In this document: positions 3,166 through 57,475 of the stretch, piece by piece
How the letters are laid out: each line of letters opens with the position of its first letter
Position numbering within the stretch: the first letter of the stretch is position 1
From: Ostreococcus lucimarinus
Lineage: Eukaryota
Direction: 5' to 3' (one strand)
Length of the DNA stretch: 64,000 nucleotides
Assembly: GCA_000092065.1 (NCBI GenBank)
Contig: CP000581.1
Translations under genes and position numbers: made by a program
The notes under the pieces: generated by a model
The model's database searches: none
Told to the model about the DNA's origin: nothing
What the model saw: the letters and a program-made list of their open reading frames with translations, nothing else

Positions 3166-3313
3166 CGCGCGCGTCGTCGGACCCGCGCGCGCGCGAGTGT
3201 GCGGCGATCGTCCCGAGCCGCCGGCGCCGTCCAGAGGGCCGCGCCGCGACGCGGCGGTTTCGTCGTTAATGTTACACCCCGCGCGCGAGGAAACGCGGCG
3301 CGGGCGCGAAAAG

Positions 3314-3835
3314 CTACTCGCGCGTCGAAATGGCTTTTTTACGTCGCTTCTTCGCGCGGCGACCGTCGTCGTCGTCGCGCGTCGCGCCCCGGACGCGCGG
3401 CGCGGCGTCCGCCTCGGCTTCGGCTTTGGCTTCGGCGCGCGCCGCGCGCTCGCGTTTCAATCGTTTACGCTCGGCTTTGCTCATGTGCCGCTTCTCGGGC
3501 GCGAGCGCGTCGGTCGGGTGCGCTCGAGCGCGCGACGCGCGTTCGACCGCTTTTTGCGCGACGAGCGCGGCGCGACCGCTCGAGGACGCGTCGGCGTTCG
3601 CCGTCGCGCGCGGCGTCGACTCGGGCGCGCGCGAGAGCGCGCGCGCGTCGGGCCGCTTCGTCGCCCCGAGCAGGGATTCCGCGGTCATCGTCGCGCGGAG
3701 ATGTTCGAGGAGTTCTTTCTCTCGCGCGTCGACCGCTCTGGGCGCGCGCAGGCGCTCGGCCTCGGCTTCCTGACGCTCGAGCGCGGCGCGGTTGGCGGCC
3801 GCGACGGCGATTCCGGAATACTTGGCCGTGCTCAT
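3314..3835 (-). CDS. Hypothetical small basic, Lys/Arg/Ala/Glu-rich protein
   Basis: True ATG at 3835. 173-aa ORF with KAERKRLKRERAARAEAKAEAEA-type charged low complexity and no recognisable domain. It could be spurious in this GC-rich context. Confidence 0.25.
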   Translation of the reverse strand: MSTAKYSGIAVAAANRAALERQEAEAERLRAPRAVDAREKELLEHLRATMTAESLLGATKRPDARALSRAPESTPRATANADASSSGRAALVAQKAVERASRARAHPTDALAPEKRHMSKAERKRLKRERAARAEAKAEAEADAAPRVRGATRDDDDGRRAKKRRKKAISTRE

Positions 3836-4022
3836 GGCGCGCGCGCGACGACGCGCGCGCTTGGTGGACGCGCCTGGTGGACCGGACGCGCGCGCGGCGG
3901 AGTGGCGCGCGGCGGCGTGGAGTGCGCGAGTCGAGCGCGGCGCGAGGGCGAGTCGTCGTCGTCGCCGCTCGGCGATGGATTTACAAAGGCGCGCGATGCG
4001 CGCGACGGTGCGCTATGAGGGT

Positions 4023-6839
4023 CTAAAAGTTCCAATAGTAATTCTTTCCGGAGGATTGCCTGTTGACGCGAGGCTTTGAACGGCGGGAATTCGGGGACAT
4101 CCACGGCGCGTCTTGGCCGAATTGGAAATCGTTCGGCGTCGGCGCGGACCAGGTGTTTGATCTCGTGAAGGAGCGTTCGTAGCTCGCGTGTCGCTCTCGT
4201 TGGGCGCGAATGCGTTCAGTTTCGTCGTACACGCGACGAAGTGCCTGGTCGCTCAACTGCGCGTTGGTTTCGCCGATGAGCTTGAAGAGACGGTCGGCGT
4301 CGTCGTGAAGTTCAGACGCCGGAGCCCACGACGGCATGTTCCGATTCGCCTTGTCTGGGTGATACTTCAGCGCCAACGCGCGATACGCCTTCTTAATATC
4401 CGTTTGCGTCGCCTTGTCTTTCAGCTCATCCAAACCGAGGATTCGATACATGTCAACCTGCGAGTTCGCCTGCGTGGTTTTGGTCGTTTCGAGCCTTCGA
4501 AGGCGATCCGTCGCCATCGCCAGAGCGTTTTTGCGCTCCTGAGCCGTGGCGAATAAGTCATATTGCGCGTTTCCGGCGATTTCGACGTACGAACGCAAGT
4601 CTCGGATCGCATCGTCCCAGCATCGAATGCTCTCGTGCAACGTCGCGCGTCTGCTCAGCGCCTTGATGTTCCAAGGATTTAACGCCAACGCTCTGCCGCA
4701 ATCGGCCAAGGCGTTGAGAAACTCGTTCAAACCTTGATACGCGGCGGCACGATTACCGAGCACGATTGAACAATACGCGGCGGCAACTGGCACCTTACCC
4801 GCGTCGAACGCGAGAGTGTAAGATGCGACGGCTTCGGCGTATTTCTCCGCGTTGAACATCTTATTGCCGTCCTCTTTACCTTTGAGCATCGTTCGCGCCA
4901 TTTCGATTGCTTCCTCGTCGACGTCGCATTCCGACACGCTTTTGACGTACTCACACGCGGCATGTGGATCCCCTTTACCCAGTAGAGCTGAAAATGTGAA
5001 CTCGGGCACCCAACCTTCCTTGGATAGGCCGAGCGTTTCGATTTCCGAGATGAAAGCGCTCGCCTCGTGGTACGCGCCGCACGCGATTAGCAGTGCCGCC
5101 TTGGCTTCGACGAACGGCTTCCCAAACTCACTCGATGAAAGCAGCGGATAACTCGACAACGCCGCGACGCTCTTGACGACTGATTCGTACGTCTCATCGA
5201 GCTTTCGCGCGCGACTGTCGCTGTAAAGCCTAGGAAGACCAGGCACACACGCTCGAAGTTTGAGCGAAGCGCCGAGCACCTTCGACAAATGTTCGGAAGC
5301 GGCTTTCGCTTCAATCTTCGCATTCTCGACATCAGCGTCCTCAGACGTCGAAAGCACCTCCAGAAAATCCATCGCGGTACCAAAGCTACCTAATTTCATG
5401 TGACACGCGGCCACGCGAAGTTGAGCACGAGTGTACGACGCATCCGCGCGAACGGCTCGCTCGCAATCGGTGAGCGCTTTGAGTATAAGAACGCGATACT
5501 CATCGTACGGCGTAGACTCGTTCGGAATCATCATCCTCGCCGCCGCTCTGTTGGTCAGTAATACTGCCGCGTCGCGACCGACAAAGGTGTCGATTTGCAC
5601 CCCCAGAGGGCTCTCGTCGCCCTTACCGGCGTTGGTTCGAGGCGCAGAGGCGAACACCATAATCGCTCTGCTATACATCTCGTCCGCTTCAACGTACTTC
5701 TCCTCGCGGTACAGCGCGTTACCTAATTGCCTGAGCCTTTCAGTCTCTTCGGAATCGCGTGAGTGAAGCGACATCTGCGATGCGGCTTGCTCGATATCCC
5801 CGACACTCACGCTCGGGCTCTCCGTCGCCGCGGCGATCGGCGGGCGTCTGTCCCGTCCGGCGCGTTGCGCGTACTTGAAACTTCGGCTGTGCTTGGCGAG
5901 CGCGGGAGAGTCATCCGCGCCCATCTTAAAATCGCCGCTCGACTTTTCCGCAGATCGCGTCGCTCGCACCGTCGGGGTCGTTTTCGTCGGCGGTGGTGCG
6001 GTGAACGTAAACTGCCTCGGCGTCGGCGCCTCAAAAATTGGCGATTGCGGTGACGTACCGAACACGCTCGCGTCACTCTTCGTCGACGCCGGCGTCTCCA
6101 CGCGTTCTACCGCGGCCTCCACGCGTAACGCACTCGCTCTACTTCTAAACGACGCGCTCTTCTTTGTTCCACTCGTCGAAGCGGCGCCCATGGTGAACGT
6201 CCTCGGCGGCGTAAACCGCGCGCCTTCGCTCGCCTCTGAATCATTCGGTGAATCCACCACCATAGGTTCCGGCGACGTCATCGGATCCGGTGACCGCGCC
6301 GGTTCCGACGCCGTATCCTTTTCAAACTCCGCGTCCAACGATCTCGCCGCTCGCGGCGCCCCCGAGTCCTCTCGCGTCAAATTTTGCTGGCTCGCGCTCC
6401 GCGCGCGCCCCGGACTCTTCTCCGGCATCGCCCGCAGCTCGAACGTCTTCACCGGGCTCTCCCGCCCCGACGACGTCGCCTCTCGTTCCAACTTCTCCGC
6501 GAACGCCCCCCAAGTCGCGCGTTCATCGCCCCCTCCGCGCTCGCTCCTCGCCGCGCTCGCCCTCGGCGTCCTCGCCGCGCCGTTCGCGCGCGCGCGAAAA
6601 CTCCGTCCCCTCTCCACCCGCGCCCGACCCGCGTCGCCCGCGCCGAGATTAAACCGCGTGAACCCATCCTCGACGTCTTTCACCGCGTCTCGCCCGCTCG
6701 TCGCCGCGCCGTCGCGCTCGGGCGCCGCGTTTTCGTCCGTCGTCGTCCCGCGGCTGGCGCTGCTTCCCCTCTCGCGTTCGTCCGTCCCTCGCGCGCGCGC
6801 GTCGACGTCTCGCGCGGGCGCGTCGCGCGGCGCGGACAT
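4023..6839 (-). CDS. TPR-repeat co-chaperone with C-terminal J domain (DNAJC7/TPR2-like) and long S/T/P-rich disordered N-terminus
   Basis: Multiple TPR units (LGNALYREEKYVEADEMYSRAI..., GNKMFNAEKYAEAVASYTLA..., NIKALSRRATLHESIRCWDDAIRDL) followed by a J domain (DMYRILGLDELKDKATQTDIKKAYRALALKYHPDKA) with an intact HPD motif. The ORF 6971 start is TTG; the first real ATG is at 6839. An unrecognised 5' intron is possible. Confidence 0.75.
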   Translation of the reverse strand: MSAPRDAPARDVDARARGTDERERGSSASRGTTTDENAAPERDGAATSGRDAVKDVEDGFTRFNLGAGDAGRARVERGRSFRARANGAARTPRASAARSERGGGDERATWGAFAEKLEREATSSGRESPVKTFELRAMPEKSPGRARSASQQNLTREDSGAPRAARSLDAEFEKDTASEPARSPDPMTSPEPMVVDSPNDSEASEGARFTPPRTFTMGAASTSGTKKSASFRSRASALRVEAAVERVETPASTKSDASVFGTSPQSPIFEAPTPRQFTFTAPPPTKTTPTVRATRSAEKSSGDFKMGADDSPALAKHSRSFKYAQRAGRDRRPPIAAATESPSVSVGDIEQAASQMSLHSRDSEETERLRQLGNALYREEKYVEADEMYSRAIMVFASAPRTNAGKGDESPLGVQIDTFVGRDAAVLLTNRAAARMMIPNESTPYDEYRVLILKALTDCERAVRADASYTRAQLRVAACHMKLGSFGTAMDFLEVLSTSEDADVENAKIEAKAASEHLSKVLGASLKLRACVPGLPRLYSDSRARKLDETYESVVKSVAALSSYPLLSSSEFGKPFVEAKAALLIACGAYHEASAFISEIETLGLSKEGWVPEFTFSALLGKGDPHAACEYVKSVSECDVDEEAIEMARTMLKGKEDGNKMFNAEKYAEAVASYTLAFDAGKVPVAAAYCSIVLGNRAAAYQGLNEFLNALADCGRALALNPWNIKALSRRATLHESIRCWDDAIRDLRSYVEIAGNAQYDLFATAQERKNALAMATDRLRRLETTKTTQANSQVDMYRILGLDELKDKATQTDIKKAYRALALKYHPDKANRNMPSWAPASELHDDADRLFKLIGETNAQLSDQALRRVYDETERIRAQRERHASYERSFTRSNTWSAPTPNDFQFGQDAPWMSPNSRRSKPRVNRQSSGKNYYWNF

Positions 6840-25939: not shown

Positions 25940-28900
25940 TCATCGACCCTTAAAGTCGCTATCTGATTCGCCGCTATCGCTCGGGTCGTCCTCGTCGAAG
26001 TCGTCGTCTGAGATTTTGTAATCGTCAGCGTCCTCTTCTTTTTTCTTTTTATCTACCACGTCCATGCCATCGGCGTCATCTTCATCATCCATGTCGTCGT
26101 CGTCGTCGCCGTCGTCGACACGATCGTCGTCGTCGTCGAAATCCGTCGCGGGGCGCGACGCGGGGAATCGGTCCATCGGATCAGTCGACGCGTCGATGAC
26201 TATGCCGAGATTTTCGATCATTTCAGCGCTGGTCAGGTACTTTTCCAACGGGAATAGGCATTTTTCGTAGTACTTTCTCATGGCAAACGACGCGCTCGTT
26301 TGCGTACTCAAATCACGGCCGAGCGTACGCGCAACCACTTTCCAAAACTTGCAGCGCGTGACTTGTTCGTATCCTCCGAGGTGCATGGCTTCTATGAACA
26401 CGCGGTGCAGATTCATCTGCGCGCCGCAAAATATCGGGGCTTGAGGAATAACACCACCCGCGAAGGCTTCTGCGCGGAACTTGTCGAAATCCCTGCGGTG
26501 GTCGCCCGAAGGCCATCCCAGTCGTCGCGCGATGGCTTTGCACTGTGCGATGAGAGTCATGTCTTCGGGAGACAGTTCCCTTTCGTGATCCACGGGAGCG
26601 GGGCCTTCGTGCACGGGATCGTGGTACTTTTCGGGTGCCGCGATTATTTCCCAAGGCGAGACCCACATGTAGTCTTCGGGATCACTATCGAACACGACCA
26701 TGACGGTTTCCCAACGATCAGGGCTCGAACGGACTTTCCGCACGCGACCAAGGTAATAGACGCAGCCATCGACAGACACGATCCCGCGCGCTTCGTTTTC
26801 CGCATCGACGCCCTCAAAGTGCATAATGATGCGACTTCCGCCGTCCCAAGGTTTCTCATCGACTTCCTGGTACTTCGACCATGGTAAAACGTACTCGGCA
26901 ATGTCTCCTCCGGCGTAAAGAGGCGCTATGATGAGTCTTCGTTCATCCTTTGCTTCCTTTGCGTCGGCTTGCTCTGCGTCGGCACTTTGTCTCCGCGTGC
27001 TCGGGAACTGACTTAACTCAGGATCATCGAGAAGTAGACACATCAACCAAGCGCAAGGCGGCGTATCGCCATCACTTGCAGCGTTGCGCCGCGGAGCTTC
27101 GCTTCCTCGATACGCCGTTCCGAGCACCACACACCGCTCGACCGGTCGCAGCGTATTCACATCAATCCAGTTTCGTGGACGCGACTTCTTGTCAACGTAT
27201 CGGTTATACGTCTTCACCAAACCTCTTTTGATGACAGCGACGACTTCGCCGGTATTAATTGCACCAACGCCGTGGGAAACGCCGGTGCACATTTGAAACG
27301 CGCCTTGCGACATTCGTTGAGGATCTTGAACGAGAAATCTCAGAAACTGATTCACCAAGTTTGCCGCGCGGCGGACTGTTAGAGGAGGTAACGGATCCAG
27401 TAACTCTGGCGCGGCTAAAATATCGTTTATTCCCGGAATAGGTTCCGATACTTCAGGAGCAGCGGTTGTCCCTTCAAGCTCCGCCTCTGTTCTCGGTCCG
27501 AAAACGTAATACCGCAGCTGCGCCAACCAAGTGGGTTTAGCATCTGGCCAGGCGACGTCATCCATCAAACCCGCTTGCGCGCAGACAATTTCTATCCCGG
27601 GCAAAACCTTCAAAAGTCTTACGAGAGATTGCTCAGATGCATTCAGCGCGCTTTCAAAATGTGTGCACGTTCTAATGAAACGATCTATCCAACGCATATC
27701 TCCAGTCCGCCAAAACGGTGCGGAGTGGAGAATAAACTTGACGGCGTTGAAAAGTCGAGACGTCAACTTCGCATCGTCGACAGAACCCAGAGCGACGTCA
27801 TCAAGATTCGCATAACCGTCCATCGCCAAAGTTTCGGACAATATTTCAACCTTTTTCCTTCTATCATCGTCGCTCAGTTCTGGCGCATCGGCGTCTCCGT
27901 CGACGGCGTGCGACATGAGTCGATGGAGTTTTGTGATGTATCGCTCGTTGTCATACTTTGGGTTGCACCAATAGCTCAACGCGTCATACTCTACAGTTCC
28001 TGGGGTGTACACGCCCCATCTTGAAGCACACTCTACTAGACCGGAAACGTTGCGCCGGCAATCTGGTGTATTCGCAGCGTCCTCTGAAAACGGCGCATCT
28101 TCGACTGGTGGACCAGCCATTGGTTGTTTGGGATACTCTACGCCGTCGATGACTTGCGACGATGCGGCGTCTTCGTCGCCATCGTACCATCCCAGTGGAG
28201 CAGTTTCGACAAACAGACGCCCCGCGTTGTTCGTACCGCCGAGGGCAAAGTATCTCCTACCCTGCTCGTCCACAGCGACAGGCTTACCTCGCGAGATGAC
28301 TGCGCGCTCGACGGCTTCAGACTTCCACTTCATCAGCTGCTCACGGCGATAGTCGGCAAGAGTGGGTGGTTTCACCAGTTCTTCGCTCGCGTCCGTTTCA
28401 TCGACTTCCATAGACACCGATTCGTCAGCATCATCTACGACCTCGGGATTCTCATCCTTTACGTTGATCTCTTTGCTGGTTTCCTTCTTTTTCTCCTCCG
28501 TCGGTTTTGGAACCTCGGTCGCGAGCGTGGGCGGGTTGCTGTGAAAATCGCCTGTTCTCCGCCGCGCGCGCACGTCATCGTAAATCTCCGTGAAGTATTC
28601 CCGGATGGTTTCACTCTCTAAGGCGATAGAACTAAGTGCAACCGCCAAAGCTATTCTGTGGACGGGCGAAAAACTCTCTAAAACTTCGCCCTTGTCCAAC
28701 TTTGCCACTGCCTCCAGCGCGGGCTTTCGCATTCGCGCGTTGACGCCCATTTGAAACTCAACAATCAAGTTATTCGCTCTATCTTGCCAATCCAACTCCC
28801 CGATGTCGTTCAACCCAAGAACGGGAGCGTCCCACCAACGCGCGCGCGTAGGCGCTGATCTAATCGTTTCTTGATCGATCGAATCTATGCGGCCCTCTGT

Positions 28901-30148
28901 GACGCGCAAACAAGACACCATGAAATCGCGCAATAGCGTCGCCTCTGCAGCTCCAAGATCACTACCGAAGAATGCTTTCGCGAAACGCTCAAGCGTCGAG
29001 CGTGGGCAGTACATGACGCTTGCAAACACTTGTGCGAAATCCCAAAGCGTGAGCAGCTCTGCCTGCAGATGTGGGCCGATGTGCGAATACTCGGGAAGAA
29101 TCGGCGACGCGGGCGGCGGAGGCTCTAGTCTCGGCACTCGAGGCTTGCTTTCCGATTCCTTCTCGGCCTTCTTCTCAGCCCTCAACTTTTCGCGCCTGGC
29201 GCGATCACGCTCTAGTCGCGATGCCTTCGTCGCGGAACCCAGCTGGTGTTTCTCTGTCGTCCACGTTTGCAAAGCTGTCAAAAATTGCGGCGCCGGGACG
29301 TCGGCTTCTTCGCTCGCCGTCGGCGGTCGCAGCGCTTTACATCTCACCAAAGTCTCGATTTGAGACACGATGAAGAATCCATCACCAACGATGTCCGCGT
29401 GCGTGTACTTGTACGCGCTGGTATCCTTCGATTCGCGTATCTCCTCTTCCGTGCACCCGTTCAACGCGGCTTCCTTTTGCGCCTCCGCCGTGGTATCGCC
29501 CAACATCTTCGCCGCCTTCGTCGGCGTTTTCACCGCCACCGGTACATCATGCGCCACGACGGGCACACCAAGAATGATATCTAAGCCTTCCTCCAGCGAC
29601 AATTCCCAGTTCTTCACCAATGCTCGAACGATCGCGTTGGTGAAGTTTGCGCGACGCGTCGTAACTGTCACGTACTTTTCAAACCTCGGAGCCGGGTTCA
29701 ACAGCTTGTACCACGCCCGCGGCGTCACGAGCCACAACTCGGGCTCGTCTCCACCGTACTTAATCGTCCAATCGTGCACCTCCATGAGCTTTAACGCGTG
29801 CGGAGGTTTGTCCTGCGGCGTCAACGGCGCCGCCAAGACCTCGCTCGGCAACCCGTGCTCGCCGCCCTCCAACTTCCTCGCTCTTCCCAGCACGAGCACC
29901 CGGTTCGGTCTCGACCCGTGCACGCTCACCGCTTTACCCTCCGCGAACTTATCCCTGAATTCGTACTCATCCAGCACGCGCATCGGCAGCGTCTGTCCCT
30001 CGACCTCGGACGGCGCCGTCGCGTCCCTCGCCGCCGCCGCCGCCTCCGCCGCCGCGCCGTCGCCCTCGTCGCCCTCGCGCGTCGCTCCGCGCGTCGTATC
30101 GCGCGCGACGGCGTCCTCGTCGTCGACGTCCGCGCCCGCCGTCGCCAT
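25940..30148 (-). CDS. Chromatin protein with DDT domain, WHIM-like motifs and C-terminal ARID DNA-binding domain
   Basis: DDT-like block ELLTLWDFAQVFASVMYCPRSTLERFAKAFFG. WSD/WHIM-like RRYFALGGTNNAGRLFVE. ARID at the C-terminus (PIFCGAQMNLHRVFIEAMHLGGYEQVTRCKFWKVVARTLG...FAMRKYYEKCLFPLEKYL). Start taken at ATG 30148 (MATAGADVDDED...); the ORF's Arg-rich 5' read-through to 31063 is rejected. Confidence 0.75.
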   Translation of the reverse strand: MATAGADVDDEDAVARDTTRGATREGDEGDGAAAEAAAAARDATAPSEVEGQTLPMRVLDEYEFRDKFAEGKAVSVHGSRPNRVLVLGRARKLEGGEHGLPSEVLAAPLTPQDKPPHALKLMEVHDWTIKYGGDEPELWLVTPRAWYKLLNPAPRFEKYVTVTTRRANFTNAIVRALVKNWELSLEEGLDIILGVPVVAHDVPVAVKTPTKAAKMLGDTTAEAQKEAALNGCTEEEIRESKDTSAYKYTHADIVGDGFFIVSQIETLVRCKALRPPTASEEADVPAPQFLTALQTWTTEKHQLGSATKASRLERDRARREKLRAEKKAEKESESKPRVPRLEPPPPASPILPEYSHIGPHLQAELLTLWDFAQVFASVMYCPRSTLERFAKAFFGSDLGAAEATLLRDFMVSCLRVTEGRIDSIDQETIRSAPTRARWWDAPVLGLNDIGELDWQDRANNLIVEFQMGVNARMRKPALEAVAKLDKGEVLESFSPVHRIALAVALSSIALESETIREYFTEIYDDVRARRRTGDFHSNPPTLATEVPKPTEEKKKETSKEINVKDENPEVVDDADESVSMEVDETDASEELVKPPTLADYRREQLMKWKSEAVERAVISRGKPVAVDEQGRRYFALGGTNNAGRLFVETAPLGWYDGDEDAASSQVIDGVEYPKQPMAGPPVEDAPFSEDAANTPDCRRNVSGLVECASRWGVYTPGTVEYDALSYWCNPKYDNERYITKLHRLMSHAVDGDADAPELSDDDRRKKVEILSETLAMDGYANLDDVALGSVDDAKLTSRLFNAVKFILHSAPFWRTGDMRWIDRFIRTCTHFESALNASEQSLVRLLKVLPGIEIVCAQAGLMDDVAWPDAKPTWLAQLRYYVFGPRTEAELEGTTAAPEVSEPIPGINDILAAPELLDPLPPLTVRRAANLVNQFLRFLVQDPQRMSQGAFQMCTGVSHGVGAINTGEVVAVIKRGLVKTYNRYVDKKSRPRNWIDVNTLRPVERCVVLGTAYRGSEAPRRNAASDGDTPPCAWLMCLLLDDPELSQFPSTRRQSADAEQADAKEAKDERRLIIAPLYAGGDIAEYVLPWSKYQEVDEKPWDGGSRIIMHFEGVDAENEARGIVSVDGCVYYLGRVRKVRSSPDRWETVMVVFDSDPEDYMWVSPWEIIAAPEKYHDPVHEGPAPVDHERELSPEDMTLIAQCKAIARRLGWPSGDHRRDFDKFRAEAFAGGVIPQAPIFCGAQMNLHRVFIEAMHLGGYEQVTRCKFWKVVARTLGRDLSTQTSASFAMRKYYEKCLFPLEKYLTSAEMIENLGIVIDASTDPMDRFPASRPATDFDDDDDRVDDGDDDDDMDDEDDADGMDVVDKKKKEEDADDYKISDDDFDEDDPSDSGESDSDFKGR

Positions 30149-30370
30149 CGCGCGCGCGCGTCGCGCGCCGTCACCCGCCCGTCGTCGGTCGGTGCGGTGC
30201 GTTGAAGATCCGCGACCGCCGCCGCGCCGCCGCGCGCGCGCGATTCGCGTCGCGTCGCGCGCGTCGCGTCCGCGCCGGCGATTCGCGTCGCGCGTCGCGC
30301 CGCGTCGCGCCGCGTCGCCGTGCGCGCGCGGGTGTGCGCGCGCGTCGTCACATCTCGACTCGTCCCGTCG

Positions 30371-31783
30371 ATGACGCCGCGACGCCGCGTCGCGCGCGCG
30401 CTCGCGGACGCGCTCGCGGACGCGCGCGCGCGCGCGTCGCCCGCGCTCGAGCGCGCGGACGCCGCGCCGTCGCCGCGCGCGCGCGCGTCGCCGCGCGCGA
30501 CGACGACCGGTCGACGCTTCGCGACGGCGGCGCGAGACGACGGCGACGACGACGACCGGGCGCGGGCGACGACGGCGCGGACGACGGGAACGCCGTCGTA
30601 CGCGTTCGCGTCGGCGATGTCGCGCGCGACGTCGCTCGAGGACGCGGTGCGAGCGTGCGCGCGAGACGTCGCGCGAGGGCTCGGTCGAGGTCGGGACGCG
30701 ACGTGGGCGCAGTTGTTCGTCTGCGGTGACTACGACGAGGACGCGGTCGCGCGCGCGGGCAAGCTGACGCGTGAATTGCTCGGTGGAACGTCGGTGTCGC
30801 TCGTGGGAGCGGTGGTGCGAGGAGGGGTGGGCGCGGAGGGGATGACGGAGTCGGGCGTGGCGTTGACGGCGGCGGCGATGCCGGGGACGACGACGGCGAC
30901 GTTTCGAGCGACGAAATCGGCGCTTCCGGCGATCGACGACGGGAGCGCGTGCTCGTGGGTTGATTTGGCGAAGAGTTGCGAGAACGAGGGCGAGACCGTG
31001 GGGGTGACGGTGTTCGCGGATGCGTCGTTCGAGCACGTGGGCGAGCTGCTGACGCGCTTGCACGTGGCGATGCCGAACAGCGTCGCGCTAGGAGGGGTCG
31101 TGGACGAGGGGAGTCTCATGTTTTTGAACGATGACGTCGTGCGACGAGGAGCTGTCGCTTTGCTCATTCGTGGTGAGTTCGAATTGGACACGCACGTCGC
31201 GCACGGCGCGCGACCGGTGGGACCCGTGATGTCGTTGACTCACGCGCACGACAACGCGGTGTTGGAGCTCGACGATTCGCCCGCACATCCGCTGCTGTTG
31301 GAAACCCTCGAGCAGTTGCCAGAGAACTCTAAATCGCTGCCCGTCATGCTCGGACTCGGGGTGAGTGGCTCTAAAGGTCCGTTCGTGTGCCGCGATATTT
31401 TATCCGTGGGCGAAACCGGGGGCGTGGAAGTCGCGTCGATGGCTTTGCAAGAGGGCGACGTCGTACAATTACACGTGCGCGACGGGAACTGGGCGAAAGA
31501 GCACGCGAATCGCGTGATTGAAAAGTGTGCCGATAGTGCGAAAAAAGTGAGTAGTGAGGAGTTGGGGTCAGAGAACTCGACAGGTGCCATGATATTCGCG
31601 TGTGGCAACGGCAACCGAATGCACGCCAGCAATTTTCGCGAACGCGTTCCGGGGACGCCCCTCGGCGGCGCGTTCTTGCGCAGCGAAATCGCGCCCCTTG
31701 CAAAAGGTCGTGCGAGTAACGTGCTGTCACACACGAGCACGATAGGAATTTACCGTAAACGTAAGAAATCGGTGTCGATGTAA
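30371..31783 (+). CDS. FIST-domain protein (FIST_N and FIST_C-like sensory modules)
   Basis: The ORF 30320 start is GTG; the first ATG is at 30371. Motifs LFVCGDYDEDAV...LVGAVVRGGVG and C-terminal MIFACGNGNRMHASNF...GGAFLRSEIAP resemble the FIST_C signature (...yGEI.P). The assignment is tentative. Confidence 0.5.
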   Translation: MTPRRRVARALADALADARARASPALERADAAPSPRARASPRATTTGRRFATAARDDGDDDDRARATTARTTGTPSYAFASAMSRATSLEDAVRACARDVARGLGRGRDATWAQLFVCGDYDEDAVARAGKLTRELLGGTSVSLVGAVVRGGVGAEGMTESGVALTAAAMPGTTTATFRATKSALPAIDDGSACSWVDLAKSCENEGETVGVTVFADASFEHVGELLTRLHVAMPNSVALGGVVDEGSLMFLNDDVVRRGAVALLIRGEFELDTHVAHGARPVGPVMSLTHAHDNAVLELDDSPAHPLLLETLEQLPENSKSLPVMLGLGVSGSKGPFVCRDILSVGETGGVEVASMALQEGDVVQLHVRDGNWAKEHANRVIEKCADSAKKVSSEELGSENSTGAMIFACGNGNRMHASNFRERVPGTPLGGAFLRSEIAPLAKGRASNVLSHTSTIGIYRKRKKSVSM

Positions 31784-51019: not shown

Positions 51020-51655
51020 TTATGACGACTTGACCGCACGCTTCTCCCTCTCCTCCATCTTATGCATCACTTTGCGCGTAGCAATCAACCCGATAATCAA
51101 CCCACACCCGACGACGAGCAACCCTCGGCTCCCTCTGCTAACCTTGCCTTCGACAATTCCAGCCCCCAAAGCGCTCTTCACGGACGACACCGTGTTCGAC
51201 TTTGCCGCTCTCCTCGCCGCGAGTAACTCTTCCAGCGTCTGATGCGCCTCAGCGTCGAACGCCCGTCCCGACGCACGCCGCTGCGTCCCGCTCGCCGCCG
51301 CGTTGATTTCATTCCACTCCCTCGCCGGTGCTACCCCGGACGACTTCATCGCGCTTCGCTCACGCCACGCTCGCGCGGCATCTAACCTCGCGCGCATCCC
51401 GGGGCCGTAGACTTCGTCTTGAGGATCCGCCTCGGCGCCGCGACGTTTCAAAAGTGCTTCATAGGCAGCCTTGAGGGCGTGAAACTCTTCCTCCGTCGTG
51501 GTGCCGTCGCTCGTGTCGGGATGAAGCACGCGCGCGCGCGCGCGAAACGCCTTTTTTATTTCATCCACGGCTGCGCCTTTGGCGACGCCGAGGACGACGT
51601 GGGGGTCGTCCGCCTTCGGCATAGCGCTCCGGGCAGTGACGCGCGGGAGCGACAT
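51020..51655 (-). CDS. Tail-anchored J-domain protein
   Basis: True ATG at 51655. J domain DPHVVLGVAKGAAVDEIKKAFRARARVLHPDTSDG (HPD present). C-terminal TM (LLVVGCGLIIGLIATRKVM). Confidence 0.7.
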   Translation of the reverse strand: MSLPRVTARSAMPKADDPHVVLGVAKGAAVDEIKKAFRARARVLHPDTSDGTTTEEEFHALKAAYEALLKRRGAEADPQDEVYGPGMRARLDAARAWRERSAMKSSGVAPAREWNEINAAASGTQRRASGRAFDAEAHQTLEELLAARRAAKSNTVSSVKSALGAGIVEGKVSRGSRGLLVVGCGLIIGLIATRKVMHKMEEREKRAVKSS

Positions 51656-51794: not shown

Positions 51795-52730
51795 CTACAG
51801 AGCGCTCATACCGAAACGCTCGCGCAAATATTCGGCGACGACGAACGTCACCACTGTTTGCGGTCCGAGTCGCATGTAATTCGCGCTGAAGCCCCTAAAT
51901 AATCCAAACGGGCCGTACCGAGCGAGAACGTCGACGAGCGTGCCTCTGACCGTCGGCGCGTTCGCGCCGCCGCTTGCCGCAGCGTTCGCGACGTACAGCC
52001 GCGTCTTCAGCATATCCACTGGATTCGTCGTCGCCGTCGTCACCACCCCCGTCAACATCGCCACCGCGAAGTGCAATCGCCACTTCGCGCCGTCGGCGTC
52101 GACGAGCCCGAGGTCGACGACGCGACGTTTCACCTCCCCGTACGTCGCCACCTGCGTCGCCGTGAGCACCGCGGACCTCATCATCGCCAACCCGCTCCCG
52201 CGCCAAAGCCCACCCACGCCGCCCTCGCGCACGACCGCTCGCAAGTGTCCCACCAACGTCGTCGACGCCCCCGCCTCGGTCTGCATGCGCGTCTTGAGCA
52301 ATTCCGTTGGATTCAGCGCCGCCGCCGCGAACGCTCCGCTCGCCGCCCCCGCGAGCAGTCTCGTCGCCACCCTCGGCGCGCCCTCGCGCTCGCGCTCCAC
52401 CGCGGGCGCCACCACTCGCAGCATCGGATCGTACAGCCCCAATCGGCACCCCCCGTACAGCGCCGCGCGCGTCAGCGCCGGCGAAATCCCTCGCCAAAAC
52501 GTCCCCAGTCCCTCCCTTCGCCCGACGTCGAGCGCCGTCCCCACGAGCGCGCCCGCGCGCCTTCGCGCGCTCGTCTGCATGCGCACCTTGATCACGTCCA
52601 GCGGGTTCGTCACCGTCGTCGCGCACATCACCGCGACGCCGCTGACGGCGACGTTCGCGGCGACGCCCGGCTCGACGCCATCGCGAGGCCGCATTGTGAC
52701 GCGTCGCGTCGCGCCGCCGCGCGCCGCCAT
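51795..52730 (-). CDS. Mitochondrial carrier family protein (UCP/dicarboxylate-carrier-like)
   Basis: Internal ATG at 52730 (alternative ATG at 52694). Carrier signatures PLDVIKVRMQ, PTELLKTRMQ and PVDMLKTRLY in three repeats. The ORF's 5' read-through overlaps the GCNA-like gene and is rejected. Confidence 0.75.
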   Translation of the reverse strand: MAARGGATRRVTMRPRDGVEPGVAANVAVSGVAVMCATTVTNPLDVIKVRMQTSARRRAGALVGTALDVGRREGLGTFWRGISPALTRAALYGGCRLGLYDPMLRVVAPAVEREREGAPRVATRLLAGAASGAFAAAALNPTELLKTRMQTEAGASTTLVGHLRAVVREGGVGGLWRGSGLAMMRSAVLTATQVATYGEVKRRVVDLGLVDADGAKWRLHFAVAMLTGVVTTATTNPVDMLKTRLYVANAAASGGANAPTVRGTLVDVLARYGPFGLFRGFSANYMRLGPQTVVTFVVAEYLRERFGMSAL

Positions 52731-55353
52731 GTCGGACCTGTTCGCCAGGCTCAGCGCGCAGAAACCGCGCGAGCGCGCGCGTCGCGCGTCCGGCGCGCTC
52801 TCGCGATCGACGCGCGAAGCGGCGCGCGACGGCGGCGACGCGACGGTTGATGTCGAAGCGACGCCGTCGGCGTCGACGCGAAAGCGCGCGCTCGGACCGT
52901 CGGTGTCCATCGTCGGCGACGCGCCGTCGGACGAGGTGGTGTCGAAAGCGGTGCCGGTGCCGCGAACGGCGTCGACGGGGCGACCGCCGCTGCGAGCGGT
53001 GGGCGTGAACGGACGGACGAGCGCGGGGACGACGCGCGAGGGGAACAAACGCGGCGACGCGAGGAGCGAGAGCGAGAGCGACGGGGAGACGAGCGGTGAT
53101 TTGATGTTCGACGCGGAGAGAAGCCGAACGTCGTCGATGTCCGCGGGATCGACGCGCGAGGAGGAGGATCGAGCGACGGAACCGCTGCCGAGGAAGACGA
53201 ACGCGAGGCGGACGACGCGAACGCCGGTGACGACGGCGCGGTTCGACGAACAGTTGAAGCTCGCGGAGGCGACGAAACGGTGCCTGAGGGAGACGATGGT
53301 TTCTATTCGTGCGAATGGTCTCGATCCAGCGCGCGTGTTCGCGTCGTTGGCGAAACAGACGCCGGGAGGTGGTGGTTCGTTCGAGGCGTTGGCGCGCGCC
53401 ATCGACGCGCTGTCGCCGACAAAGCCGACGAAGGGGAAGCGCTTGAGCTTTTCTACGGCGGAGACGCAGACGCCGGTGACAGTGATGCGAGACGCGGCCT
53501 GTGATGTGAGCGAAGATGCCAGTTTTGATTCGGCGGGCGAAAGTTTCGAGGCGACGGCGGAAGAAGAGGAAGTTGTCGAAGAGGAAGGGACTTTTCCGAC
53601 GTGCGATTGCGGCGCGGCGGACTGTACTTTGGTGAAAATGCACGCGCGCGGCGGGCCTTTCGCGCTCTTAGATCACACTCGAACGGTTTCGTCGATCGAG
53701 TCCGAATCCATCGCGGAGACGGATGACGAAAACGACGCCGACGACGAATCGGTGGCTGGAACGGAGGTCGACGACTTGGACGATTTAGACGACGCCATGG
53801 ACGCGCTCGATTTGAACACTCGAAAGGATGACCTCGACGAAGATCAGACGGCTTTGACTGAGTCAGAAGTCGTTGAAGATGAAACGATCGAACCCATCGT
53901 GAAGTTCGGGACGCATATACGATTCGACGATTCGATCGTCGTCGATTCACCTCAAGTTGCCGGTGGTCGCGACGAAGTTGAAGCTTTGAAAGGTGAGCCG
54001 GAGTTGCCTACCGCGAAGATCGAAAATCACGTTCGATTCGAAGATTCAACTGCTTCAGATTCACCTGCCGTCGCTAGCGTTCGTCGTCCACGAGCGCGCG
54101 AGAGACGGCGCAAGGTTATTCTTGACAGCGACGCCGAGGACGAGAGCGAGTCGGACGAAGTCACGCTCAACGACGACGACAATGATGACGATGAAGCATC
54201 GGAAGAAGATCAGGACGCACCCGTGGTGAATACGCGACCACGCCGCATCGCAGCGCGGAAGCCACTCGTGCCTCGCAACGCTTTCGTGGACGATGATTTA
54301 TCCGGAAGTGAAGATTTTGATGACATCGATGACGAACTTCACTCTAGCGACGATGATTTCATCGACGACGACGACGACTCGTACGCGGATGATGATGCGG
54401 TGGAATACGACAGTGACGAAGAAAACGTGACACCAGTGCCGCGAAAGCCATCAAGTAAGATTGACGTGGCTAAGGAAATGAACGATAAGCTCGTCATCGA
54501 CGAGTACAGCCCGTCGAATCTGCACACGCCGACGCCACCAAAGGAGCTCTCGCCGACGTCTGCAGTGAAAGCGTTCAGACCACCACCTTCGCACAGTAAG
54601 GCTCTTCAGTCTGCGATTAAGAGCGTGACCAAGAATGGTGTTCAAAAGTTGAACTTTAATCGAGACAAGGACGCCATCACCGCTGCGCTATTCGCAGAGT
54701 TCAACGAAAAGGTGTTCGATGCCGAGCTTCCGTCGGACTTTGAAGTGACGTGGAACAAGAAGCTGCTGACCACGGCGGGCCTGACACATTACAAACGTTC
54801 AACGAAATCTGGTGAGACAACGTACAGCGCGCGCATCGAACTATCCAACAAGGTGCTGGACACAGTTGAAAAACTCGAATCCACGTTGCTCCACGAGATG
54901 TGTCACGCCTCCGCTTGGCTCGTCGACAAGACCGCGAAACCACCTCACGGGCCGGTGTTTAAGAAGTGGGCTAGTCAAGCGATGAAAGTTTATCCCGAGA
55001 CGAACGTCAGTACGTGCCACGCGTACACGATCCATCAGCCGTACAAATGGCGTTGCACCAGAGACTGGTGTCAACAAGAGTACGGCCGTCACAGCAAGTC
55101 AATCGATATCACGAAAAAGGCGTGTGGTGCGTGCGGGGGGAAGTTGGAGTACCTTGGCAAGTTCAAGAAGAATGGGGACGAAGTAGCCGCTCGAGCACCG
55201 ACGGCTTTTTCGTTGTTCGTGAAGGAGCACTTCAAATCCACCAAGAACGCTCTCGGCGCTTCGACTCCGCACAAAGACGTCATGAAACATTTATCACAGC
55301 GATGGAAAAATGAAACGGGCAAAGACGAAGTGATTGAACTCACCGACGAATGA
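52729..55353 (+). CDS. GCNA: GCNA/ACRC-like protein: long acidic disordered region, SprT-like zinc metalloprotease domain, zinc finger and C-terminal HMG box
   Basis: SprT motif STLLHEMCHASAWL (HExxH). C4-type finger ...CQQEYGRHSKSIDITKKACGACGG. HMG-box-like tail PTAFSLFVKEHFKSTKNALGASTPHKDVMKHLSQRWKNET. About 700 aa of Asp/Glu/Ser-rich disorder precedes the domain. ATG at 52729. Confidence 0.7.
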   Translation: MSDLFARLSAQKPRERARRASGALSRSTREAARDGGDATVDVEATPSASTRKRALGPSVSIVGDAPSDEVVSKAVPVPRTASTGRPPLRAVGVNGRTSAGTTREGNKRGDARSESESDGETSGDLMFDAERSRTSSMSAGSTREEEDRATEPLPRKTNARRTTRTPVTTARFDEQLKLAEATKRCLRETMVSIRANGLDPARVFASLAKQTPGGGGSFEALARAIDALSPTKPTKGKRLSFSTAETQTPVTVMRDAACDVSEDASFDSAGESFEATAEEEEVVEEEGTFPTCDCGAADCTLVKMHARGGPFALLDHTRTVSSIESESIAETDDENDADDESVAGTEVDDLDDLDDAMDALDLNTRKDDLDEDQTALTESEVVEDETIEPIVKFGTHIRFDDSIVVDSPQVAGGRDEVEALKGEPELPTAKIENHVRFEDSTASDSPAVASVRRPRARERRRKVILDSDAEDESESDEVTLNDDDNDDDEASEEDQDAPVVNTRPRRIAARKPLVPRNAFVDDDLSGSEDFDDIDDELHSSDDDFIDDDDDSYADDDAVEYDSDEENVTPVPRKPSSKIDVAKEMNDKLVIDEYSPSNLHTPTPPKELSPTSAVKAFRPPPSHSKALQSAIKSVTKNGVQKLNFNRDKDAITAALFAEFNEKVFDAELPSDFEVTWNKKLLTTAGLTHYKRSTKSGETTYSARIELSNKVLDTVEKLESTLLHEMCHASAWLVDKTAKPPHGPVFKKWASQAMKVYPETNVSTCHAYTIHQPYKWRCTRDWCQQEYGRHSKSIDITKKACGACGGKLEYLGKFKKNGDEVAARAPTAFSLFVKEHFKSTKNALGASTPHKDVMKHLSQRWKNETGKDEVIELTDE

Positions 55354-55597: not shown

Positions 55598-56191
55598 TCA
55601 CATCGCCGGAACTTGGAAGTCTGACGCGTTCGGCGGCACGGCGCGACGAGTGACGGTTTGGATAACTTGACGAAGCATTTGGTTCTCTCTTTCCAGAGTC
55701 GTCACGCGGTTTTCCAACTCGTGCAATCGGTTCGCCTTTTGCGCCTCCGTTTGTTCCAAAGACGCGAGATACGCCTTTTTCCGTTCTCGCGCTTGCTGCG
55801 CCGACACGCGGTTTCGCAACAAACGCTTGAGCCGTTTTCTCTCCTTCTCATCCGTGATCGTGTTCAATCGTTCCTCGTCCGCCTTCACGCTCAGCGCCGT
55901 GTTCCCGTGCGGAATGTGCATCGAGTTTCGTCCGACGTACCCCATCCCGAACCCACCCTGATTCGCCGCCGCCCGTCCCCCTCGCGCCGTCGGCTTGCTC
56001 ACCGCCCCGCTCGGCGGCGTCCCGCTCCCTCGCGCCCCCGCCCCCGCGCGCTTCGCCCGTCCGCTCCCGCCGCTCCCCGCCGTCATTCCGGTCGACGTGC
56101 TCGCGCTCGACGTCTGATTCACCGCCTGAAACGTCTGAAACGTCGACGTGAACGCGCTCCGCTCCGTGCTTCGCGCGCCCACCAGTGGCAT
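55598..56191 (-). CDS. HY5: bZIP transcription factor, HY5-like
   Basis: True ATG at 56191. Basic region and leucine zipper [63 protein letters not shown], close to the HY5/HYH basic-region consensus. Confidence 0.7.
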
Positions 56192-56594: not shown

Positions 56595-57029
56595 CTAGTA
56601 GGCGGCGACGCCGTAGATTGGGCCTCGAATGCGTCGAGCGAGCTGCAAATCCTTGGGCATGATGGTCACGCGCTTGGCGTGAATCGCGCAAAGGTTGCAG
56701 TCCTCGAAAAGATGCACCAAAAAGTCCTCCGTGGCCTCCTGTAACGCTAACAAACTCTCCGCCGTGTAACGCAACGGTTCGGGCGAGAGCTCGTTTGAAA
56801 TCTCTCGAACCTGCGAGTCGAGGGGAAAGCGAGGTTCGTCAGTGTCTGAGAGCGCGTCGGTCGAGCGCGGCGAGACGACGTTCGAATCGTTTACACCGTC
56901 TCGCGCGATGAAACGCACCAATCGCGCGAACGGCATCTTCCGAATCAACAAATCCGTCGTCTTCTGAAACCTCCTAATCTCCTTTAGCGCCAACGTCCCC
57001 GGGCGATAACGCCGCTTCTTCTTGTCTAA
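56595..57029 (-). CDS. CENH3: Centromeric histone H3 variant (CENH3/CENP-A-like), exon 2 (histone fold)
   Basis: [33 protein letters not shown]...[31 protein letters not shown] is an H3 fold, with a roughly 35-aa expanded loop 1 typical of CENH3. Minus-strand ACTGAC at 57073-57068, then gcgcagag acceptor at 57032-57030. The ORF-track MGKDELRF... start is a GTG inside the intron. Confidence 0.7.
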
Positions 57030-57475
57030 CTCTGCGCGCGAGGGAAAACGCGCATCACGCACCGCAGTCAGTCTTACGAACACTTCGCGCGCGCGCGCGC
57101 GCCGTCGGGACGCGCCGCGCGCGGCGACGAGGCGAACGAGCGCCGTCGCGGACCCTTCGGACTCCAACAGCCATTGAAATTTCAAAAATCTCAATTCATC
57201 CTTTCCCACGCGTGCGCCTTCTCAACGCCCCCACGCGCGCGCGCGTCGACCCCGAACGTCACATACCTTGTCGCTCCGCGCCATCCGCGCCCGATAATCG
57301 CCGCTGCGGCGCCTGCGTCGCGCAAAGTCACATAAATCGTCAGCGCGTTTCAAGTTTGAAAATCGCATTCGCCACCGCGCCTCGCCGCGCCCCTCTCCGC
57401 GCGTCCGCGTCGCCGCGCACCGCCGCGGAGGTTTCAAGCGTCACCCGCGCGCCTTCGCTCGCGTCGCTCGCGCAC

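Follow-up and report, generated by a model that had tools for sequence, protein, structure and literature searches.

Does a unicellular green alga carry a complete member of the GCNA/ACRC family of nuclear proteases, and what would its presence there say about a family named for germ cells? The question is raised by a gene of Ostreococcus lucimarinus that lies in a 64,000-nucleotide stretch of contig CP000581.1 (assembly GCA_000092065.1), referred to here as the window. The gene is located on the plus strand and encodes a protein of 874 amino acids (Table 1). A sequence-only reading of the locus had proposed an acidic disordered region followed by a SprT-like metalloprotease, a C4 zinc finger and a C-terminal HMG box, and had assigned the protein to GCNA/ACRC. 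We have followed up this proposal by profile searches, structure prediction, phylogeny and comparison with related proteins and loci. With a probability of roughly 85%, the window protein is the green-algal orthologue of GCNA/ACRC, that is, a nuclear zinc metalloprotease of the SprT superfamily, a paralogue of Spartan and a presumed crosslink protease. The gene is intact, and its catalytic and zinc-ribbon residues are conserved.

Results

Protease domain, zinc ribbon and family membership

Pfam searches and the AlphaFold2 models bear out the proposed order of domains, with an HMG-like element in the place of the box. The SprT-like domain reaches 88.8 bits (cut-off 25.6). Residues 628–874 were modelled with a mean pLDDT (predicted local distance difference test) of 91.8 and adopt a mixed α/β protease fold followed by a β-ribbon and exactly two C-terminal helices. 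The HEMCH residues H722, E723, C725 and H726 are invariant across 48 aligned family members, as is H740, which aligns with the region of the third zinc-binding histidine of Spartan. The EMCH core is identical to that of zebrafish Acrc (PMC13092972). All four cysteines of the zinc ribbon (C776, C781, C799, C802) are invariant too, and 43 of the 48 relatives match the profile Zn_ribbon_SprT at E ≤ 0.01.

A profile of the C-terminal module finds, among the best 120 of its 245 matches, the Monosiga brevicollis protein XP_001744295.1 (P0125; E = 6e-104), which is 44% identical to the window protein over the folded module. This protein is one of the seeds of the GCNA model of Carmell et al. (2016), which also include Ostreococcus tauri XP_003074438.1 and Chlamydomonas Cre01.g003700 (PMC5098910). 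For a phylogeny, 13 Spartans, collected with a fragment of human Spartan, were combined with 20 GCNA-like proteins comprising the window protein, the Monosiga seed, and proteins of Ciona, chytrids and chlorophytes. The two groups were separated in 300 of 300 bootstraps (neighbour-joining, Poisson distances, 140 protease-domain columns). Within the protease domain, the window protein is 37–88% identical to the GCNA-like proteins and 24–32% identical to the Spartans. The distribution of accessory domains follows the same division: among the matches listed, PF22934 occurs in many proteins of the Spartan clade and in none of the GCNA-like ones, PF17283 is found in many GCNA-clade proteins, and PF00505 also occurs in some of these. 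The assignment to GCNA/ACRC is supported in this way. Of the two results that together had been named beforehand as refuting it, a SprT domain grouping with Spartan or Wss1 and a box failing the HMG profile, the former did not arise, since the domain groups with GCNA; the box is below threshold in this single sequence, and the assignment stands.

In its layout the window protein agrees with GCNA/ACRC in all four components and in their order (PMC5098910): a large disordered region comes first, at the N-terminus, a SprT-type protease with HExxH and a C2C2/C4 zinc finger follow, and the extreme C-terminus is formed by a two-helix HMG box. It also shares with this family HEMCH as catalytic motif and SIM-like (SUMO-interaction-motif-like) sequences in the arm that precedes the protease. 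It differs in several respects. Its arm exceeds in length those of most retrieved relatives, many of which are truncated gene calls; the first 250 residues are basic instead of acidic; there is one strict SIM-like motif, as against at least four in human ACRC; and some modules of the arm, described below, are not noted in the excerpts of the GCNA papers at hand.

The C-terminal HMG-like element

What had been called an HMG box is related to such boxes without being a complete one. A 55-column profile of family C-termini matches box B of HMGB1 with E = 6e-13 and also finds HMGB2/3, TFAM, TOX and NHP6A. The matches always cover helices I–II only (positions 8–50 versus HMGB1 residues 95–136). The Pfam profile PF00505 is itself matched by 19 of the 48 relatives at E ≤ 0.01, the best value being 3.3e-8. 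We used sequence profiles here; Foldseek on a whole model cannot judge a two-helix element. Judged by these profiles, the element is homologous to helices I–II of the HMG box at the family level, and it is truncated. In the AlphaFold2 model the chain ends 11 residues past the second helix and a third helix is absent, and most homologues likewise terminate 0–30 residues after helix II. The C-terminal 45 residues of the window protein are homologous to helices I–II of the canonical HMG-box proteins HMGB1, TFAM and NHP6A; unlike these proteins, however, it lacks helix III, does not form the full L-shaped, three-helix box of about 70 residues and falls below the Pfam gathering score. It is the truncated two-helix box that is described as defining GCNA (PMC5098910), and this is the form found here, with two helices after which the chain stops.

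The N-terminal arm

The arm preceding the protease fold comprises about 625–650 residues (about 630), somewhat less than the 700 first proposed, and is mostly disordered. The description of this region as extremely acidic, with runs of aspartate, glutamate and serine, applies to residues 251–600; residues 1–250 are basic, and the longest D/E/S run in the arm measures 8 residues. In an AlphaFold2 model of residues 1–657, for which the alignment was shallow (9 sequences), pLDDT was below 50 for 477 residues, and secondary structure was confined to a helical island at residues 169–226 and the start of the SprT fold. With so few sequences aligned, the low pLDDT of the arm is consistent with disorder and does not prove it.

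The arm evolves fast. It is about 31% identical to those of the closest relatives found, the metagenome proteins P0189 and P0193, as compared with 64–66% for the protease domain. A large, rapidly diverging, acidic disordered N-terminal region, as is characteristic of GCNA, is thus present, though its first 250 residues are basic. Against this background several elements stand out as common to the closest relatives: the helical island, shared with P0189 and P0193, and the short motifs SVSIVGD..DEVV, CDCGAADC..GGPFAL, DESVAGTEVDD, VILDSDAEDESESDE, DDDFIDDDD..VEYDSD, LHTPTPP and PPSHSKAL. The second of these, a cysteine-containing motif at residues 292–313 (53602–53667, plus strand), is likewise shared with P0189 and P0193. 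It is the helical island, the CDC...C/GGPF motif and DESVAGTE that the excerpts of the GCNA literature at hand do not note.

A SUMO-interaction motif (SIM), which the sequence-only reading had suggested looking for, has one strict candidate in the arm, VILDSDAEDESESDE. Its counterparts in relatives read RVVLSEDDSEDD and VIVDSDDDD, and the Monosiga GCNA seed has AVLLSDSDGDDDD. Weaker candidates are VSIV (residues 59–62), SIVVDS, LVIDEY and the C-terminal EVIELTDE. Across 93 N-terminal regions of the family, 60 SIM-like motifs were seen versus 9.9 expected from residue shuffles, an enrichment of about six-fold. Tails that resemble EVIELTDE in being hydrophobic and then acidic also directly follow HMG helix II in P0113 (KVIDVSD) and in P0033 from Helicosporidium (SIVDLSLSD). 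This C-terminal tail of several algal GCNA-like proteins may be a SUMO-interaction motif.

Gene model

The ATG at 52729 opens a frame of 874 codons that ends with the stop at 55351–55353, as seen in the list of open reading frames (ORFs) and their translations. The longest mechanical ORF is larger (51940..55353, 1137 amino acids). Its first 263 codons run antisense to a mitochondrial-carrier gene at 51795..52694 on the minus strand, the product of which contains three Mito_carr repeats (Pfam, E = 4e-53). Because the two frames have their third-codon positions in common and GC3 (the G+C fraction at these positions) is about 0.88 in the overlap, we consider this upstream extension an antisense shadow and not coding. 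Mutual antisense ORF shadows of this sort extend over both strands from 51940 to 53402 in GC3-rich DNA, and the carrier ORF on the minus strand can be extended to 535 amino acids over the N-terminus of the GCNA gene.

Position 52729 is the first in-frame ATG past the start of the carrier gene and lies 34 bp from the divergent carrier ATG. Residues 52–118 match residues 51–119 of P0189 (BLASTP, E = 2e-4), SVSIVGD..DEVV in the window protein being aligned with TVSIVGN..DEEIV in P0189. A start at 52729 is supported by this match because the motif is conserved at equal distance from the N-terminus in both proteins. Downstream, the convergent bZIP gene ends at 55598, and therefore no space is left for a further 3' exon. 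Exact look-ups in public records retrieved the 299-amino-acid carrier model that starts at 52694, which is on record exactly in public assemblies, and no match to a 311-amino-acid version of it; for the 874-amino-acid protein, the bZIP protein and the neighbouring DnaJ protein, exact look-up in named-database records gave no match.

Table 1. Features of the GCNA/ACRC-type gene and its product (window coordinates)
Feature	Residues	Position	Strand	Basis and remarks
Complete GCNA/ACRC-type coding sequence	1-874 plus stop	52729..55353	+	ORF and translation; intron not apparent
Basic Ser/Thr/Arg-rich part of the arm	1-250	52729..53478	+	Composition: pI 10.5, net charge +11; mostly pLDDT < 50
Conserved N-terminal motif SVSIVGDAPSDEVV, hydrophobic core then acidic residues	58-71	52900..52941	+	Aligned with P0189 TVSIVGNDVDEEIV; weak SIM candidate
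Predicted helical island	169-226	53233..53406	+	pLDDT 72-79; sole such part of residues 1-620; aligns with a segment of P0189
Strongly acidic disordered part of the arm	251-600	53479..54528	+	31% Asp+Glu, net charge -79; composition, charge-hydropathy; pLDDT < 50, no secondary structure
Best SIM candidate VILDSDAEDESESDE, three hydrophobic residues then acidic/Ser tail	463-477	54115..54159	+	Motif scan
SprT-like zinc metalloprotease domain	653-764	54685..55020	+	Pfam PF10263, E = 2.7e-25
Catalytic centre H722-E723-M724-C725-H726 (HEMCH) and third zinc ligand H740	722-740	54892..54948	+	Alignment
C4 zinc ribbon (C776, C781, C799, C802)	772-807	55042..55149	+	Pfam Zn_ribbon_SprT sub-threshold; Cys conservation
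Non-canonical two-helix HMG-like box (helices 826-842, 848-863)	822-865	55192..55323	+	Pfam HMG_box sub-threshold; family profile; AlphaFold2 model
C-terminal tail EVIELTDE, second SIM-like motif	867-874	55327..55350	+	Regular expression: VIEL then acidic tail

Genomic context and related loci

The window is gene-dense and codes for proteins of eukaryotic or plant type, among them a dynamin, a hydroxyproline O-arabinosyltransferase, a DNMT1-RFD/ARID protein and a histone H3 variant with introns. With 99.8–100% identity and the same neighbours, the locus recurs in marine or seawater metagenome contigs and one read-archive assembly (L002–L007). With no more than 5 base differences, these copies do not allow synonymous and non-synonymous changes in the N-terminal frame to be compared. 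Named relatives with about 50% identity are mostly chlorophytes among the matches listed. These features fit a eukaryote of the green lineage, probably a marine picoalga of prasinophyte type. The genes that adjoin the locus encode a small bZIP factor (55598–56191, minus strand) and a protein that combines a DnaJ domain with a hydrophobic segment at the C-terminus (51020–51655, minus strand), and the order is conserved in the metagenome contigs. In the more distantly related metagenome contig L001, which measures 201 kb, a GCNA-like gene at 3261–6789 (plus strand) was called in three frames of 293, 340 and 262 amino acids, as might result from introns or from long-read frameshift errors.

Two further genes of the window encode chromatin-type proteins. 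The H3-fold histone variant at 56595–57209 on the minus strand (Pfam Histone, E = 7e-38) has a divergent N-terminal tail. Its ORF remains open through an in-frame intron of 108 nucleotides (GTGCGT...CGCAG, about 56918–56811), and a second intron (GTAAGA...GCGCAG) is apparently located upstream. It is a possible candidate for centromeric H3 (CENH3). The 1706-amino-acid ORF at 25940–31063 (minus strand) combines a DNMT1 replication-foci domain (RFD; E = 6e-32) with an ARID DNA-binding domain and may represent a reader of chromatin or DNA methylation.

Discussion

Much of what is reported here for O. lucimarinus was already known for the family. The architecture, the family name, the origin in early eukaryotes, the presence in green algae and the two-helix HMG box had all been reported in 2016, when orthologues were described in Ostreococcus tauri and Chlamydomonas (PMC5098910), so that our assignment amounts to the correct annotation of a member of a known family. 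The sequence-only reading had gone further and taken the presence of the gene in a unicellular alga to imply an ancient role that is not specific to germ cells. The ancient origin agrees with the published view. The non-germline role does not follow from it: Chlamydomonas Gcna is 17-fold induced in gametes (PMC5098910), and presence in a unicellular alga alone is therefore no proof of a role outside reproduction.

Other family assignments were weighed and rejected. Spartan (SPRTN/DVC-1) is a replication-coupled protease that is directed by ubiquitin and PCNA, and not by SUMO, to DNA-protein crosslinks, on which the window protein is presumed to act as well. It belongs to the same superfamily, has the same catalytic geometry (HExxH plus a third histidine), and in its human version (6MDW) is the sole significant neighbour in the PDB (phmmer E = 4.7e-7; Foldseek E = 2.4e-8). 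That the window gene is the Spartan orthologue of the alga is hardly credible, however, in view of the tree split and the low identity to Spartans reported above. Moreover, in Spartan the protease is N-terminal and is followed by PF22934 and by the SHP, PIP and UBZ motifs, whereas the protease of the window protein is C-terminal and its disordered region N-terminal. No match to PF22934 was found in it by Pfam at E ≤ 1, and regular-expression scans revealed no PIP box, SHP box or UBZ finger. A YABBY-like DNA-binding regulator, in which the C2C2 zinc finger and the HMG-like helix-loop-helix would make up a transcription factor akin to the 'YABBY-like protein' of Micromonas (gene cited in PMC8074164), is suggested by the similar layout of zinc finger and HMG-like helices in plant YABBY proteins. 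Pfam YABBY matches in two members of the 48-sequence alignment, and in P0070, which carries PF04690, echo the descent of YABBY from GCNA that was proposed in 2016 (PMC5098910). This possibility is very improbable for the window protein, which has no match to PF04690 at E ≤ 1 and keeps an intact protease, which YABBY proteins lack. Wss1, the WLM protease of yeast and plants, offers an analogy in its presumed logic of recruitment, being a SUMO-directed crosslink protease with SIMs; it has no HMG-like box and a different order of domains, and a Wss1/WLM assignment was dismissed because WLM (PF08325) is not matched at E ≤ 1. A bacterial SprT contaminant is at odds with the eukaryotic context of the gene and was discarded too.

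Two further alternatives leave the family membership untouched and concern the N-terminal arm. The gene model might be too long, the true start being a downstream methionine (e.g. residue 126, 190 or 253) and the basic 250 residues an untranslated leader or an antisense shadow of the neighbouring gene. In line with this, GC3 in 52729–53290 is about 0.86 and resembles that of the carrier gene before dropping to 0.5–0.7 farther along, the ATG is close to the divergent carrier start, and the minus-strand frame is open across the N-terminus as well. We nevertheless consider a downstream start unlikely. The motif within residues 52–118 is conserved at the protein level with P0189, and so is the helical island; public records let the carrier begin at 52694; and the L001 protein P0002 is 99% identical over the N-terminal motif, with the upstream neighbour there being a DUF842 gene and no carrier called. 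The other alternative takes the full-length arm at face value and holds that the protein acts mainly through it, for example as an acidic chaperone of histones or chromatin proteins or as a scaffold, in the manner of mouse GCNA. The latter lacks the protease and is made up nearly completely of the disordered region, yet it is required for fertility (PMC5098910; PMC13092972). Binding of GCNA to histones has been reported (PMC10250205), and the algal arm retains several conserved short motifs in addition to the helical island. Such a predominant role of the arm is quite unlikely here, given that the HEMCH catalytic residues, H740 and the four ribbon cysteines do not vary among 48 relatives, which argues for selection on catalysis. 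A function as scaffold or chaperone and one as crosslink protease are not mutually exclusive and may coexist.

Judging by studies of human ACRC, of GCNA-1 in C. elegans and of Acrc in zebrafish, the algal GCNA orthologue would most likely degrade crosslinked proteins as a protease recruited through SUMO and tethered to DNA. By this analogy, the protein would be drawn by the SIMs of its arm to SUMOylated DNA-protein crosslinks (trapped topoisomerase 2 or DNA methyltransferase, for example), the zinc ribbon and the HMG-like helices would keep it bound to DNA, and cleavage of the crosslinked protein by the protease would clear the way for replication and chromosome segregation. In the animal systems, recruitment of ACRC to crosslinks is SIM-dependent, and C. 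elegans GCNA-1, which binds polySUMO, confers protection from formaldehyde and cisplatin (PMC6463212). Zebrafish Acrc is described as an essential protease that repairs DNA-protein crosslinks, and among the mutant alleles used is one in which the catalytic EMCH residues are deleted (PMC13092972).

Several points weigh against the assignment and the function derived from it. For the algal members, the window protein included, activity as a protease and binding of DNA and SUMO are predictions drawn from animal proteins. Two of the C-terminal elements stay below their Pfam thresholds: the Zn_ribbon_SprT match reaches 23.6 bits in the 874-amino-acid protein and 25.4 bits in its C-terminal 247 residues (cut-off 28.1), and the HMG_box match, which covers only positions 3–45 of the 69 in the profile, reaches 18.2 and 20.6 bits, respectively (cut-off 25.4). 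Only one motif, VILDSDAEDESESDE, fits the strict pattern of a SIM plus acidic tail, whereas human ACRC uses at least four. Membership in the GCNA clade is supported by a neighbour-joining tree with a single literature-anchored GCNA seed and no named vertebrate GCNA in the sampling. Finally, the site at which transcription begins and the initial 50 codons are predicted, next to a divergent ATG.

We know of no observation of sex in culture for a haploid picoalga of the Ostreococcus type. It is tempting to speculate that the modules of the arm, namely the helical island, the CDC...C/GGPF motif, the invariant DESVAGTE and the C-terminal SIM-like tail, are previously unrecognised partner-binding sites, and that the gene acts in ordinary mitotic cells of a haploid picoalga without a germline. 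This idea, which would make the gene more than a routine orthologue, is tentative and on balance doubtful. If it were true, an Ostreococcus-type alga would offer a minimal, genetically tractable system in which the repair of crosslinks by GCNA could be separated from reproduction.

The locus also illustrates two traps in annotation. In a GC-rich genome, the longest ORF, here of 1137 amino acids, can be inflated by the antisense shadow of a neighbouring gene, and the Pfam thresholds for HMG box and zinc ribbon under-call the C-terminal elements that define the GCNA family. In practical terms, the gene could be taken up for functional studies in a compact alga and is of little significance beyond its correct annotation. 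For the family, the finding means that all four GCNA domains, with the catalytic residues intact, have been retained in the genome of a marine picoalga, in line with the published view of GCNA as older than animals and germlines.

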